Positions 1-11,684 of a DNA stretch of 31,652 bases are shown piece by piece. The notes under the pieces were generated by a model. The model did no database searches and was not told the origin of the DNA. It was given only the letters and a program-made list of their open reading frames with translations. Source of the DNA: a virus (Duplodnaviria; Caudoviricetes); IMG/VR virus record IMGVR_UViG_3300022937_000089, positions 1 through 31,652 of that record; one strand, written 5' to 3'. The stretch's first letter is position 1. Every line of letters starts with the position of its first letter. The position numbers and the translations under genes were made by a program.

Positions 1-410
1 TGCGTTCAGATACTGGTGCGTTGCAAGGACAATGCTAACTTAAGGCATGAAAGATGTGGCTCTGTGAAAAAGATACAACCACGAAGCAAGTGATTTCGAC
101 TGTTAGGGATTAACTGCTTTCCGCGGATATTGCGAATGCTGAAGTAGGGGGTTGAAGGTCTGCCGCCTCCGTACATATTATATGTAATCTTCTTTAACAG
201 GTTGGTGACGCTAACTCACATGAAGCTCAACAACACTAATTCGTCCGGCAACGGGCGAATTGTGGCTCTACTATCTACATGATGCTAACAAAACTGCTTC
301 GCAGTTGTTGTGTTCATATATAAAAGTTTCGAAGAAGAAAAATGCGTTGAGCGCAAGCGAAAACGCAAGAGATCTTTAGATCTCTATTAAACGTTTTCAA
401 CTGTTGGAAA
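1..410 (+). ncRNA. Putative large structured non-coding RNA, probably truncated at the window's left edge
   Basis: No ORF of 60 aa or more. Dense stems: GTGG 56-59/CCAC 79-82; 83-120 stem whose loop CTGTTA (100-105) matches TAACAG (195-200); TACATA/TATGTA 172-186; 10-bp stem with GCAA tetraloop 238-261; 292-306; 343-367 (tandem GA plus GCAA loop); 368-385; 394-410. G-U pairs and GNRA loops read on the + strand. Confidence 0.6.
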
Positions 411-415
411 TAATC

Positions 416-589
416 TTAAAAGAATGGAAGTTTGGTTTTTTTGGTAGTCTCAAGATTCTCTTCGACAATGTCTCCGATTAACTGTCTTTCCTCTGAACTT
501 AGATGCATGGCTTCGCTGTAGGACATACCTCTCATGTACCAACACACCTTGAGGATATCCTTCTTGAGTGCCCTTGCGTCCTTATCCAT
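416..589 (-). CDS. Small gp51-like baseplate hub/tail assembly ORF (57 aa from ATG), probably also or only made as a -1 frameshift extension of the upstream gene
   Basis: Manual translation, not in the ORF track: MDKDARALKKDILKVCWYMRGMSYSEAMHLSSEERQLIGDIVEENLETTKKTKLPFF. The YS-E-x-M-x-L-xx-EER pattern resembles the small gp51-like ORFs of T4-like phages. No Shine-Dalgarno before the ATG; the frame is open upstream through the slippery site at 643-649. Confidence 0.75.
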   Translation of the reverse strand: MDKDARALKKDILKVCWYMRGMSYSEAMHLSSEERQLIGDIVEENLETTKKTKLPFF

Positions 590-627
590 CTTGTCGGACA
601 GTTCTAAGATCTCTGATACGGGCAGCG

Positions 628-1512
628 TCAGGATCTGCGCTCGAAAAAATCCGATTGATCAAGTGTTACGGGAACATTAAAGTTGTGTTTGCATTCCTCA
701 TTTTCACACTGAACCTTTTGATCAGGAATGTTAACTCCCTGTCTCGTTTCTTCGATATGGGTCTTGAGTTCGTTAAAGATTTCGCTGGTTGTGTTTTCCA
801 AAAATTCCTTGATCTGCTCCGGGTCGCTTACGCTCCCTTCTGGCACCTCAATTTTGTCAACGCACTGCGTAATCATGTCAACTGTCATTGTTGTCAGTTT
901 GACAAAACTCTCATTGAACTTGGTCATCTTTTCGGAATCTGATAGTTTTTCATCATTGATTACCGAAAACACTCTCTGCTGTTCAAGAGCCTTTAGATTG
1001 TTATCCGTCATCTGCTTGTAGGTAAACGGTTTGATGTAAACAGTCATTGCTCCAACCTGTACTGTGGGTTGGAATTGAAACTGCTGTACCCTACCAAGAT
1101 GATCCACCAATGGTAGCGTGTATTTGTTTTCTGTTTCGCACTTAGGACAGTTTGCAAAGAAATCCATGTCCTTGCCATAGGTAGCAACCCTGATTGCCAT
1201 CAAGACAGCATCAAGATCAATAGTGGGCATTACCCACGGATTCTTGATTGCTGGTACGCAACTCTTGATCACTTCAACAGTGCTCTGTCCTGAAAGGAGC
1301 GCATCTGGCGTTTTCAATAATAGTTCGTCCTTGGCTGTCATGGCATAAACTGGATATTCACCATTTTCTGATGCATCAAGGGCATCACCATAATACACAC
1401 CTTTAGATGGCAATTTGATATAGATCTTTGGTTGTCTATAGTAGCCCTGAAGGGGATTTGGTTTCTTTGTTTGTCCCTCTGTTATCGTAACGTTAGGAAG
1501 TTCATCCGCCAT
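628..1512 (-). CDS. gp26: T4 gp26-like baseplate hub assembly protein / tail chaperone
   Basis: 294 aa with IKLPS, MTAKDELLL, IDLDAVLMAIRVATYG, CPKC and C-terminal CENEEC...DFF; GGAG SD upstream; next to the tape measure gene. Confidence 0.8.
   Translation of the reverse strand: MADELPNVTITEGQTKKPNPLQGYYRQPKIYIKLPSKGVYYGDALDASENGEYPVYAMTAKDELLLKTPDALLSGQSTVEVIKSCVPAIKNPWVMPTIDLDAVLMAIRVATYGKDMDFFANCPKCETENKYTLPLVDHLGRVQQFQFQPTVQVGAMTVYIKPFTYKQMTDNNLKALEQQRVFSVINDEKLSDSEKMTKFNESFVKLTTMTVDMITQCVDKIEVPEGSVSDPEQIKEFLENTTSEIFNELKTHIEETRQGVNIPDQKVQCENEECKHNFNVPVTLDQSDFFERRS
643..649 (-). other. Putative -1 programmed ribosomal frameshift heptamer T TTT TTC
   Basis: Minus strand reads TCG GAT TTT TTC GAG CGC AGA TCC TGA. 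The -1 frame continues TTT CGA GCG CAG ATC CTG... to TAA at 416-418. Confidence 0.7.
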
Positions 1513-1523
1513 ATTTTATCTCC

Positions 1524-1531
1524 AATAAATA
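1524..1531 (+). promoter_or_regulatory. T4-late-type promoter (AATAAATA) for the tape measure gene
   Basis: 7/8 match to TATAAATA, intergenic, upstream of the 1593 ATG. Confidence 0.65.
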
Positions 1532-1558
1532 CATTATGTTAAACATATATAGTGTAAG

Positions 1559-1566
1559 TATTTATA
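1559..1566 (-). promoter_or_regulatory. T4-late-type promoter (TATAAATA) for the gp26-like gene
   Basis: Exact T4 gp55-dependent late consensus on the minus strand, about 47 nt upstream of the 1512 start. Confidence 0.75.
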
Positions 1567-1592
1567 TGCGCAGTTTTCTGGAAAAATAAAGA

Positions 1593-4277
1593 ATGGCAAA
1601 AGTAATTATTGATATACCCGGAATTGGAGAAGTAGAAGCCAAAAATGTCGCTTCTGAGGCTACGCTACGTGAATTAGTCAAATTAATGGGCGGAAGTGCT
1701 GGCAACCAGGGTGGTGGTGCTGGCGGTGCAGCGAGCAGTTTGGCCAAGAGCCTTGCTGGTGCCGGGAAATCAAGCGGTTCTCTAACCAAGGCATTTGGAG
1801 GATTGGCAAAAATACCTCTTGCATTGGGCAAGGGATTAATGATAGCGGCCACGGCGGCCTATAAATTTACCAAGTTTGTTGCGGACATGACCAACCAGGC
1901 AAGTGCCGTGTTGGGAAGTTTTGCAGACCTTGACAAGAGCCTAACTGGTGCGGCTGCCAAGATTCCTCTGTTTGGACAAACCTATGCGAGATCGGTCAAG
2001 GCAACGGAAGAATTGGTTAATGCATTCCAGGCAGCGTCCAGCGTTGGTGCGAGTTTTGGAGGCAGCATTCTAAATCTTTCAAACGCGGCAGCACAGGGAG
2101 GCATGACCATAGACGAATATACCAGATTCGTGAGACAGAATGCAAATGCTTTCAGGCTATTGGGCGGCAGCGTTGAAACGGGAAGAAAGAGATTTGAAAG
2201 CATCAGCAAGGAATTAAGAACATCGGGATTGATGACCCAATTAACTGCACTTGGATACACTTCTGCCGAGGTTAACGAAACGGCAGCCAAATACATAGAA
2301 TTAGTAAGCATGATGGGCAGACAACAAAACATGTCTGTGCAGGAACTGGCAATACGTTCGGCAAATTATGCGAAAGAAATTGACATGCTGGCCAAGGTTA
2401 CTGGTGAAACCAGAGAACAACAAATGGATGCACAGAAACAGTTGTTGGCTGATGCACAGTTCCAGGCAAAGATTGACAATATGTCAGTAGACAGTGCCAA
2501 GGCATTGATGGCTTTCATAAATGGTCTGGAACCTGCAATGAGACCAATAGCCAAGGACATCATAGCAACTGGAAGTGCAACAACGGACCTTTCAAGAAAG
2601 TTTGCAGCAACACACGGTGATTCGTTTAGAATGATGCAGGAGTTTGCAAAGATTACGGAGAAGGATGGAATACTGACTCTCCAACAACAAACAAACTTGG
2701 ACAACATGCTACGATCAGAAGGAAATCTAAACGCAGCAAGGTTTAGAGACATAGGTAGATTTAGTTCAGACTTCGCAGGATTGTACAATGTGATGACGGT
2801 AAATTCACGTATGGACGAGGACAGACGAATGAAGGCTGCGGCTGACCAGGCAAAACAGATCAAACTCAGCGACGAATACGTCAAGACCATAGAAACCCTA
2901 AGAAGAAGAATTAACGAAACTTCCATTGAATTTAAAAACTTCCTTGTTTCATCAGGACTGCTAAACGGATTCATGCAGGCATTCGAGACGGTGACAGAAG
3001 TAGTAAGAGCAATATTCATGCCTATACAAAAATTAGGCTCTGCCTTTGCAAGACTGTTTTCAGCGGTGTTTAGTTTATTCAAACCAATCGCAACACTCGT
3101 TAAAAACGCACTCAACCCACTCGTGGACGTATTAGTTCCGGTAGTTGATTTCTTTACAAACATGGTGAATTCGATTTTTCCTGCGGTGGAACTTGGAATG
3201 CTCTACGTCAAGAAAGCATTCTATTCTGTATCGGATTGGGTATCCGATACCTTCAGACCGATCATGGATTTCTTTGGAAGAACCTTCGAAGGCATTGCCG
3301 AATGGTTCAACAACAACTTCGTGATACCTTTCCAAGAAGTAGGATTATGGTTTAGAGAAAAATTTGTCAAGTTTTGGCAGGATTCCATGCAGTGGATTGA
3401 AGAATCGTTAGGACCCCTTTCGGATGCATTTACATGGATGTACAACCACGCAATCAAACCAGTTGCCGAAGGATTCCAGAAGATGAAAAATTGGATGACT
3501 GACTTTATTGATTCGTTCTCGGGTTTTGGAGATGTACTCGAACTGTTTGGAATACAGTTTTCAAAATTAGGAGTGGCATTTGATGAGTTTGGTCTTTGGG
3601 TTGACAAGAAGACCACATTCTTTGAGAATGACGAGGACAGACAAAGATTTGCAGAAAAGCAGGCTGCCATTGATGAGAAGAATAATGAAATCAAGGAAAG
3701 ATCTCAAAAGTTGGCAACCAAGATGGAAGAAACCAAGAACAAGGTTCAGTCAGATCGTGCGATCAAGGAATTGGAAATTCTTGAAGCAAGGAAAAAGCGT
3801 GATAATGAACTTAATACACAGATTGGAAATGCACAGAGCCAACTTTGGAAGGCAGTAACAGGCAAGTCTCTTGATATCGTTGAGAAAAACGAACAGGCAA
3901 AAATAGATGCGCAGAATAAGGGCGGTGTTGATTTTGCCAATCCTTACATTGCACTCGGTTACAAAGCAGCCAAGGAAGACAGTTACCTAATAGGTGATCG
4001 AGGAAAAGGAAACATAAAATCCATTGAAGATCAAAATGCCAAAGATGATGCCAAAAAAGAAGCAGAAGAAAAAGCCAAAAAGGAACAACAATCCAAAAAT
4101 ACAGGTGCGGGAACCAATACAGGATCTTCTTCAGCCACATCTTCGAGTGCCGAGGGTGGATCTACATTAAATAGTATGATGGCACAATTGGTTGAATTAA
4201 ACAAATTACAATTAAAAGCAGCGAATAGACAAATCAAAGTAACGGCTGGACTGGCTGGCGATTTGAATATTACGTAA
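1593..4277 (+). CDS. Tail tape measure protein
   Basis: 894 aa, Ala/Gly-rich and helical. Roughly 11-residue periodic W/F spacing (DWVSDTFRPIMDFFGRTFEGIAEWF...), C-terminal coiled coil, adjacent to the gp26/gp51-like genes. Confidence 0.75.
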   Translation: MAKVIIDIPGIGEVEAKNVASEATLRELVKLMGGSAGNQGGGAGGAASSLAKSLAGAGKSSGSLTKAFGGLAKIPLALGKGLMIAATAAYKFTKFVADMTNQASAVLGSFADLDKSLTGAAAKIPLFGQTYARSVKATEELVNAFQAASSVGASFGGSILNLSNAAAQGGMTIDEYTRFVRQNANAFRLLGGSVETGRKRFESISKELRTSGLMTQLTALGYTSAEVNETAAKYIELVSMMGRQQNMSVQELAIRSANYAKEIDMLAKVTGETREQQMDAQKQLLADAQFQAKIDNMSVDSAKALMAFINGLEPAMRPIAKDIIATGSATTDLSRKFAATHGDSFRMMQEFAKITEKDGILTLQQQTNLDNMLRSEGNLNAARFRDIGRFSSDFAGLYNVMTVNSRMDEDRRMKAAADQAKQIKLSDEYVKTIETLRRRINETSIEFKNFLVSSGLLNGFMQAFETVTEVVRAIFMPIQKLGSAFARLFSAVFSLFKPIATLVKNALNPLVDVLVPVVDFFTNMVNSIFPAVELGMLYVKKAFYSVSDWVSDTFRPIMDFFGRTFEGIAEWFNNNFVIPFQEVGLWFREKFVKFWQDSMQWIEESLGPLSDAFTWMYNHAIKPVAEGFQKMKNWMTDFIDSFSGFGDVLELFGIQFSKLGVAFDEFGLWVDKKTTFFENDEDRQRFAEKQAAIDEKNNEIKERSQKLATKMEETKNKVQSDRAIKELEILEARKKRDNELNTQIGNAQSQLWKAVTGKSLDIVEKNEQAKIDAQNKGGVDFANPYIALGYKAAKEDSYLIGDRGKGNIKSIEDQNAKDDAKKEAEEKAKKEQQSKNTGAGTNTGSSSATSSSAEGGSTLNSMMAQLVELNKLQLKAANRQIKVTAGLAGDLNIT
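4166..4173 (+). promoter_or_regulatory. Possible late promoter (ATTAAATA) inside the tape measure 3' end, serving the portal gene
   Basis: TAAATA core about 115 nt upstream of the portal ATG; the intergenic gap is only 12 nt. Confidence 0.4.
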
Positions 4278-11182: not shown

Positions 11183-11264
11183 ATACATTGGTAATAGAGC
11201 CGAATCTTTCGGACTTATGCGGAACCAACCGCGTATTACATAGAATGTAACATAGGAGAAAAAA
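11178..11264 (+). promoter_or_regulatory. Late promoter (GATAAATA 11178-11185) plus structured 5' leader
   Basis: Hairpins 11200-11212, 11216-11235 and 11236-11250 precede AGGAG (11254-11258). Confidence 0.65.
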
Positions 11265-11684
11265 ATGGGAAGACCAATTAACAAAAAATGGTTTGGTACA
11301 CAGACCGGCACGTCAGAAGGCGATTATCCGAATATTCCAGTCGAAGCAGCATTCATCGGTGGAAAAATTGTAAGAAGTGATGAAGGTGGATCAGAAGTAT
11401 TCATCGTCAAGCAAAAATCTGCACGCAGATTTCTTGTGCAATCACAGGATGAAGGCGAACAGGCAGTTTGTAAACTCGTAAACAAAGTAACTGATTCATC
11501 TGCTGTTGCAGCAGGCGAAATGGTAATTGTTGGACACTTAGCATCTTCAGGCGGAGATGGTGGTCAAGCGATCAACATCATGAAGATGACCAACAGAGTT
11601 GCAACATCTTTTAACGGAACACGCTACAAGTGGTCTGTAACTGATGACTCTACTGCTAACGTTCTTGTTTTGACAGCAATGTAA
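11265..11684 (+). CDS. Putative virion structural protein (139 aa)
   Basis: Strong SD, late promoter, first gene of the appendage cluster. Confidence 0.75.
   Translation: MGRPINKKWFGTQTGTSEGDYPNIPVEAAFIGGKIVRSDEGGSEVFIVKQKSARRFLVQSQDEGEQAVCKLVNKVTDSSAVAAGEMVIVGHLASSGGDGGQAINIMKMTNRVATSFNGTRYKWSVTDDSTANVLVLTAM

Follow-up and report, generated by a model that had tools for sequence, protein, structure and literature searches.

The window, i.e., the whole stretch of 31,652 nt analysed here, is an entire virus record of about 9% completeness (CheckV) from a giant, uncultured phage of the T4-like kind, with genes for T4-like portal, protease, capsid, tail-fibre, and baseplate-hub proteins. The nearest deposited relatives of the hub protein belong to the jumbo phages Phosso, Atu_ph07, and PA5oct (31-35% identity). 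Positions 1-385 constitute the 3' part of a non-coding element of around 450 nt on the + strand. Three longer contigs (L001-L003) match window positions 1-1600 at 99.9-100% identity and, together with a further near-identical longer contig (L053), place the beginning of the element around 65 nt to the left of the window, about at the stop codon of a nuclease gene. On the longer contigs, the genes for a late sigma factor, gp47, gp46, and a 2OG-Fe(II) oxygenase are followed by a small ORF, the nuclease gene, a gap of 483 nt, and then a convergent small ORF and the hub gene, window position 1 being situated 66 nt past the nuclease gene. The element closes the gp55-gp47-gp46 operon and faces a convergent gene. 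The upstream nuclease is a SegE-type GIY-YIG protein of 149 aa (Pfam PF19835, E 2.9e-34); an earlier note on this DNA had suggested looking leftward for such a gene, and on the longer contigs it lies directly upstream of the element.

The same note had described the first 410 nt as free of ORFs, and no credible ORF is found there: the longest stop-free frame on the + strand comprises 51 codons, and the - strand contains one ATG frame of 56 aa. The + strand folds better than its shuffles (z -2.29, 0/100) and the - strand more weakly so (z -1.38, 7/100 shuffles), in accordance with the + orientation previously ascribed to the structured, RNA-like element; for the full 483-nt gap, z is -2.75. Fold, covariation, and the longer contigs agree that the sequence is, as had been assumed, the 3' portion of a large RNA-like element that contains pseudoknots and lies on the + strand, and a real structured element is almost certainly present. 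The conserved part stops near 385, and a hairpin at 393-410 was not seen in relatives. The following features can be distinguished:

1-285, + strand: RNA-like body of the element (its first ~65 nt lie left of the window), delimited by near-identical longer contigs and covariation
1-24, + strand: 3' strands of a 5' multi-stem domain (2-7, 15-18, and 20-24 pair leftward of the window), variable among subtypes
32-48, + strand: hairpin P3 (32-36/44-48); pair 34-46 is GC in 27/42 and AT in 15/42 relatives; 19% G-U
55-83, + strand: hairpin P4 with a T-loop-like segment (59-72); 57-81 is the top covarying pair
85-118, + strand: hairpin P5, whose loop 100-105 forms pseudoknot 1 with 195-200 (covariation)
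123-163, + strand: pseudoknot 2, 123-127 with 159-163 (covariation, mutual information)
141-192, + strand: P7 (141-144/189-192) around P8 (147-151/166-170) and the variable hairpin P9 (172-186)
195-200, + strand: 3' strand of pseudoknot 1 (covariation)
218-226, + strand: box 1 (ACATGA and the next 3 nt), repeated directly as box 2, with whose template strand it is predicted to pair
238-261, + strand: hairpin P10 with a GCAA tetraloop, between the boxes
277-285, + strand: box 2, ACATGA plus 3 nt; 8/9 identical to box 1 in the window copy
292-306, - strand: hairpin D1, whose bottom (template) strand has the DNA mini-hairpin loop C(GAA)G (covariation)
312-342, + strand: A/T-rich spacer of variable length
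343-367, + strand: hairpin D2, with a conserved tandem GA/GA mismatch and a GNNA loop
368-385, + strand: hairpin D3, a perfect stem with the loop TTTA in this copy
416-589, - strand: small ORF of 57 aa, flanking, behind the hub gene and outside the element
628-1512, - strand: baseplate hub (gp26-like) gene, convergent on the element and outside it (phrog_150, E 2.2e-21)

The small ORF has no PHROG match, and a TTTTTTC run is situated before it at the end of the gp26-like gene (643-649, - strand). Elsewhere in the window, the Rfam model freshwater-2 matches positions 11198-11267 (+ strand) with 50.2 bits (cut-off 49.9), adjoining the start of a 139-aa ORF.

Secondary structure, twin boxes, and terminal hairpins

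Mutual information was obtained from 42 relatives that belong to the two nearest clusters and have a mean identity of 65%, and its top pairs are Watson-Crick helices. An early alignment of relatives left out five rows with offset starts. In an alignment of 19 rows, the 59 named pairs are 94% paired and 40 of them exhibit two-sided changes, as compared to 42-46% paired when slid, controls that flatter the structure, since it was derived from the same sequences. The long-range pseudoknot between 100-105 and 195-200, proposed in the earlier note, stood up to the test of covariation, with 111 of 111 cells paired and two-sided changes in five of six pairs (29-51% paired in the slid control). Pseudoknot 2, which the earlier note had missed, surfaced by mutual information; it is paired in 95/95 cells, with two-sided changes in four of five pairs and 17-59% pairing when slid. 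Two other long-range contacts were rejected: pairing of the GGTC loop at 157-160 with 264-267 appears plausible by eye but is not general, mutual information pairing 159-163 with 123-127, and the contact 59-62/349-352 obtained with RNAalifold lacks any two-sided change, position 352 covarying with 357.

Concerning the short motifs described before, all their positions are correct, but not all of them are motifs of the family. The segment 59-72, which we take to be T-loop-like, is nearly invariant in the 42 relatives. As to the two GCAA loops read as GNRA loops, the one at 248-251 is kept in 38/42 relatives, whereas at 353-356 no GNRA loop is conserved (see D2 below). The repeat TGTGGCTCT (55-63, 261-269) and the threefold GCTAAC are not kept as repeats in relatives and do not exceed chance level, any 9-mer being found twice in 29%, and any 6-mer three times in 69%, of 2000 shuffles. 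Two of the three CATGA sequences (219, 278) belong to true twin boxes, whereas that at 46 is unconserved; the boxes covary as direct repeats instead of as the CATG palindromes that had been described.

The stems of the 5' domain have moderate support, from compensatory changes seen by eye and from 54-58% Watson-Crick pairing in 42 rows of mixed subtypes; this domain is less well resolved because the subtypes differ. In three loci (L096, L128, L095), an AGGCAA-containing tail of the nuclease gene is repeated before the element where another ORF intervenes, which suggests that the 5' end of the RNA lies within this tail. In L116, the end of the nuclease gene and the 5' domain of the element are both shortened, such that the reading frame runs into the RNA.

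The hexamers of the two boxes are identical in 80 of the 80 elements that could be parsed out of 86, both boxes being constrained by the search pattern in this count; the remaining six have a different prefix and, by eye, likewise the same hexamer twice. With box 2 left free, identity is found in 119 of 120 loci and in 142 of 143 distinct modules (the single deviating module has G in box 1 vs A in box 2), and 22 of 22 further metagenome modules agree. At least ten hexamer variants exist, most of them non-palindromic, and they recur across the nuclease tree (18 changes, minimum 7). The boxes are spaced by 47-64 nt, without reading-frame preference. Each variable box column finds its best partner over the 42 rows in its twin column of the other box and not in a complementary one, and a complementary partner for the boxes was not found within the element. 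The simplest source of a complement would be the template strand of the DNA. Over the nine box positions of 165 modules, 127 mismatches would be wobble pairs in a duplex of box-1 RNA and the complement of box 2, as compared to three in the opposite direction (15 vs 1 among 26 clusters), counts in which relatives are not independent. This bias derives mostly from positions 8-9 and may partly reflect composition, with box 1 keeping its G for reasons of its own and box 2 entering A-rich DNA. A further 42 box mismatches are transversions, including one at position 7 in the window copy. The strict identity covariation of the two boxes requires a mechanism even if the function proposed below should fail.

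The last ~100 nt of the element look like DNA hairpins, not RNA. D1-D3 covary and yet contain 0-2% G-U pairs, whereas P3, P5b, and P8 contain 19-21%; low G-U content alone does not mark DNA, since P7 and pseudoknot 2 are also G-U-poor (1-3%). Among 76 parsed elements, the bottom strand of D1 carries C(GAA)G in 38, most loops being GNA or GNNA (about 2% G-U); D1 is weak or missing in L247, L256, L280, and L296. The loops of D2 are GATA (33 of 76), GTTA (18), GTAA (10), GCAA (7), and others (8), and with GNYA in 55/76 this is not an RNA GNRA loop; its pair 352-357 is CG in 30/42 and TA in 11/42 relatives. D3 is 99% Watson-Crick without any G-U pair, 368-385 and 369-384 are among the top covarying pairs, and its top-strand loop in relatives is mostly GNA, GNNA, or TTTA. 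GNNA and TTTA loops as well as tandem GA mismatches prefer DNA. DNA hairpins whose GNA loop has a sheared closing G-A pair are described as compact (PMC5449611). Perfect hairpins of this type occur only twice in the 31.6-kb window, both times within the element, and three to five times per contig in three contigs of 167-236 kb, where the longest ones lie within the element. The spacer at 312-342 resembles an unwinding element and may act as one. A conserved U-tract terminator after D1-D3 was not found in relatives. Taken together, the DNA-like hairpins and the twin boxes point to an action on the element's own DNA locus and not to a free RNA such as GOLLD or ROOL; the earlier idea of an RNA of that kind throughout is less likely for this terminal part, given its G-U content and loop types.

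Relatives, neighbouring genes, and syntenic elements

Hundreds of relatives of the element exist. According to pattern scans, stored viral sequence contains about 500 candidate stretches by one count and about 200 by another. Of 120 metagenome sequences that matched the T-loop-like motif, 69 belong to the family, and 86 non-redundant elements fall into six clusters. Viral contigs provided the 80 best nuclease relatives; the 54 with 450 nt or more of downstream sequence all carry the element, a count for which the profiles were built largely from the same loci. Comparison of three subtypes by blastn with 50,697 deposited phage records gave nothing significant. In bacterial and archaeal genomes, five pattern matches were obtained, two of which (L358, L359) are phage-like contigs with a nuclease gene in one MAG and the sole family members found in the species-genome collection; the other three are without a family match.

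No Rfam match was obtained for the window element at E up to 10, nor for the full element at E up to 1, and ARAGORN found no tRNA in the window or in L001-L003; the former statement that this stretch is neither tRNA nor tmRNA can thus be extended to the other families of Rfam 15. The further exclusion of RNase P and introns agrees with the same lack of matches and with the absence of an interrupted host gene. The element had also been considered possibly an undescribed family, and this is correct in part: the window subtype has no Rfam match, whereas two of the clusters begin at their 5' end, at the same genomic site, with the Rfam motif Polynucleobacter-1 (RF01718), found in 3/20 loci of one set and in 13/20 chosen loci of another. 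The profile of these RF01718-bearing clusters matches window positions 163-392 (E 7e-33), and that of the largest cluster positions 212-366 (E 5e-10). A piece of the family is therefore already catalogued; the window element is not a member of an Rfam family by model match but is, judged by the profile alignment, homologous to the elements bearing Polynucleobacter-1. The motif forms the first ~140 nt of the sister elements, whereas the window subtype possesses a different 5' domain, and the 141-position model (at least 37 bits) matches neither the window nor full-length copies of its subtype. This model stops before the pseudoknots, boxes, and hairpins of the element. In L358/L359, a 5' domain like that of the window is joined to the core of another subtype, and together with the presence of RF01718 in some clusters this indicates a modular family, in which the Rfam motif is one of the 5' domains. 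In the tables of Weinberg et al. (2010; PMC2864571), Polynucleobacter-1 has 16 examples and is rated a candidate with a possible cis-regulatory role; a full-text search for the name yielded this paper alone, and a description of the full element was not found in the freely accessible literature searched.

The GIY-YIG nuclease appears from the sequences compared to be a frequent but dispensable neighbour of the element. Of 73 loci selected by pattern and with 900 nt or more of upstream sequence, 71 contain it, the pattern having been derived from nuclease-linked loci. In L090 and L095, the element follows other genes and the nuclease is absent, and in L096, L098, L128, L147, and L149 extra ORFs are situated between the two. 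Another gene precedes the element in 11 metagenome loci that contain twin boxes and 600 nt of upstream sequence, and 7 of the 12 upstream genes in these loci and L090 encode RusA-like resolvases. Conversely, phage Melnitz possesses a 67%-identical nuclease without the element, and the nuclease family occurs in 722 phage records, many of them of cyanophages and coliphages. The RNA subtypes are mixed across the nuclease tree, nuclease proteins of 96% identity accompany different boxes, and no nuclease residues were found that track the box sequence. The HEARO-like nuclease association suggested before is therefore unsupported, because each of the two, element and nuclease, is also found alone.

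At the same genomic site, the cultured jumbo phages Munch, PBECO4, CBB, GAP32, PA5oct, and Phosso possess gaps of 0.6-1 kb without credible genes; in Atu_ph07, no such gap is present at this site. Equally to the window element, these elements lie in the same gene neighbourhood and exhibit a GC-rich hairpin followed by hairpins with tandem GA and GNA loops (by eye), but homology to the window family was detected neither by nhmmer nor by a covariance model, and they occur at four to five places per genome, whereas each of three partial contigs of the window family contains a single copy. No description of them was found in the literature searched. The Rak2-like element (L363:7046-7740 on the - strand, L364-L369) is structured, around 600 nt long, and possesses its own twin repeats, matched by eye in 7 of 7 aligned copies in two variants (CGTCAAG or CGTCAG); it also holds a segment resembling the T-loop-like motif of the window family and has no Rfam match. 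In Phosso (L362:7855-9256, - strand), a 1-kb structured gap without genes is directly followed by the gene for RNase HI. In PA5oct, the unannotated element beside the hub gene (L361:7525-8900, - strand) is a paralogue of the annotated ncRNA004 (within L370:817-1518), the two having 126 nt at 83% identity and an identical 32-nt hairpin in common; the syntenic copy is not among the four ncRNAs given in PMC7318152, where the share of ncRNA004 in the phage reads falls from 0.08% early in infection to 0.03% in the middle and 0.02% late (Table 1). Two CATAAG repeats flank a GC-rich hairpin in ncRNA004, and its annotated 3' end (position 1435 of L370) coincides with the final base of the second repeat, the shared hairpin following 52 nt further on; this coincidence is a single case, seen by eye, in an element without detectable homology to the window family. 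By analogy with it, the 3' end of the stable RNA would likely be situated near position 285, at box 2.

Proposed function and alternative explanations

The organization of the element fits that of origins primed by a transcript. We propose, with a probability of about 0.5, that it is a cis-acting gene for a primer RNA combined with a replication origin, at which box-1 RNA would pair with the template strand of box 2. The transcript of the + strand would fold with the two pseudoknots (the fold itself follows from covariation), and box identity would be enforced by ~9 bp formed between box 1 and its sole complement at hand, the template strand at box 2. That a segment of the RNA can pair with the downstream template strand is seen at the sequence level only, in the identity covariation and the directional wobbles. 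Such pairing would hold the duplex open, such that the RNA 3' of box 2 would stay hybridised over D1 and the A/T-rich spacer and the displaced top strand would fold D2 and D3; RNase H would then make the primer end, and helicase and primase would load on the displaced strand, as in ColE1 and T4 oriF. The order of the parts (folded RNA, box 1, hairpin, box 2, template-strand hairpin, A/T-rich spacer, displaced-strand hairpins) fits this scheme by analogy. In three contigs of 167-236 kb, the one copy of the element lies 5-6 kb from the minimum of the cumulative GC skew in 3/3 cases, a minimum which gene direction explains as well and for which third-position skew is not decisive. RNase H (PF00075) was not found in five partial contigs of the window family, and the genes just downstream of the element in relatives look, by eye, like those of small virion proteins and not of RNase H.

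Concerning ColE1, replication requires that a stretch of the RNA pairs with a stretch of the template strand (PMC4412123), and the persistent hybrid is cut by RNase H, the displaced strand serving helicase and primase (PMC4412123, PMC3977913). The long folded transcript, the template-pairing stretch, and the signals on the displaced strand known from RNA II (PMC4412123) are all predicted for the window element. There are, however, differences: ColE1 is a plasmid, no sequence likeness exists, its G/C tracts correspond here to purine-rich variable boxes, and the window element has two pseudoknots and no identified counterpart of the antisense RNA I. No Rfam match to RNA II or RNA I was obtained, and the proposal is that the element works like them, not that it belongs to them. 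In T4, oriF forms its R-loop within an A/T-rich element, and strand switches are found close to the active origins (PMC3016281). A T4-like phage, priming by a transcript (as proposed here), an A/T-rich unwinding region, and the proximity of a strand switch would be common to T4 oriF/oriG and the window element (PMC3016281), whereas the T4 origins comprise ~100 bp, need no specific R-loop sequence, and exhibit no common motifs, as opposed to the structured RNA of 350 nt, the matched boxes, and the conserved hairpins found here.

Among the alternatives, a free ornate RNA acting in trans, i.e., a scaffold or cage like GOLLD or ROOL, deserves the most attention and appears rather unlikely. The boxes would then represent a symmetric RNA contact or the site of a dimeric protein, and D1-D3 would end transcription. 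Such an RNA would be in accordance with the size, the two pseudoknots, the T-loop-like motif, and the swappable 5' domain over a conserved 3' part; GOLLD exhibits similar features and, in addition, symmetric A-A and kissing contacts (PMC12286853), and both GOLLD and ROOL are large, phage-encoded RNAs with several pseudoknots and of unknown function. Most box variants, however, are non-palindromic and cannot kiss themselves, the boxes have stayed identical through some 18 changes along the tree of the neighbouring gene, and the GNA loop of D1 sits on the bottom strand. Furthermore, the element is shorter than GOLLD and ROOL, ends in DNA-type hairpins, is fixed between the recombination operon and the gp26 side, and has no tRNA genes nearby (window, L001-L003), and the Rfam models of GOLLD, ROOL, and OLE gave no match in the window element or in the examined loci. 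All box evidence fits equally well if the same pairing of RNA and template served, where the gp55-gp47-gp46 operon ends, to stop transcription, to form the RNA 3' end, or to initiate recombination, a possibility we consider improbable. The position of the element at the end of an operon facing a convergent gene speaks in its favour. So do the mixing of RNA subtypes on the nuclease tree and the ends of contigs, both as at a recombination hotspot: in 26 of 80 loci the contig breaks off no more than 450 nt past the nuclease stop, as compared to 3 of 80 upstream of the gene. Nevertheless, such breaks may stem from sequence common to co-occurring phages, a doubly knotted RNA of 350 nt would be much for a terminator, and the conserved U-tract is missing. 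Many of the downstream contig ends (L004-L083) lie at 135-147 nt, and the window itself starts inside the element.

Three further explanations have little probability. An RNA partner or guide of the upstream GIY-YIG nuclease, in a ribonucleoprotein like HEARO/OMEGA, would suit a structured RNA beside a gene for a single-domain nuclease with a basic insert, and the high co-occurrence (71/73 and 54/54, with selection bias in both) would suit it too; it is nonetheless scarcely to be expected, given the loci with the element alone (L090, L095, 11 metagenome loci), the nuclease of Melnitz, and the lack of box-tracking residues and of any visible variable guide segment. In HEARO/OMEGA, moreover, the ORF is of the HNH/RuvC type (IscB), whereas the neighbour here is a PF19835 GIY-YIG gene, upstream and dispensable, and the element exhibits neither an Rfam match nor signs of mobility or a guide. 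A reverse transcriptase that jumped from box 1 back to box 2, on the model of DRT2 or telomerase, would produce tandem cDNA, and the direct repeats on either side of its short template would likewise be expected to change together as identical copies. This is very improbable: RVT_1 was not found in five partial contigs (105-236 kb, 29-66% complete), the metagenome collection yielded no concatemer junction for the commonest subtype, and the box spacing varies without reading-frame preference. Finally, GIY-YIG genes are common in group I introns, and the complex knotted fold might suggest a ribozyme, derived from an intron (group I/II) or of another kind (RNase P-like), that reacts at the boxes; such an origin has hardly any likelihood, as Rfam matches are absent at the thresholds given above, the element interrupts no gene, and the order of its helices is, by reading, unlike the P3/P7 core of group I.

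Large ornate phage RNAs still lack functions. Returning to the primer RNA and origin, a broader version, which we put forward more tentatively, is that jumbo T4-like phages share a class of RNA-primed origins in which an internal copy of downstream DNA guides the RNA to invade its own template; Polynucleobacter-1 would then be an interchangeable 5' domain, and the Rak2-like elements and PA5oct ncRNA004 would be counterparts. No description of an origin of this kind in these jumbo phages was found in the literature searched. If true, it would give a job to an Rfam motif orphaned since 2010 and extend the primer-RNA principle of ColE1 to viruses, and the cultured jumbo phages of E. coli and Pseudomonas with look-alike elements make it directly testable.

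The slot right after the element is occupied in relatives by genes for highly variable proteins of 100-560 aa (e.g., L010:3998-4549, L005:3904-4818), whereas this slot gene is absent from the window. These proteins have a short N-terminal pattern in common and presumably resemble phage internal head proteins.
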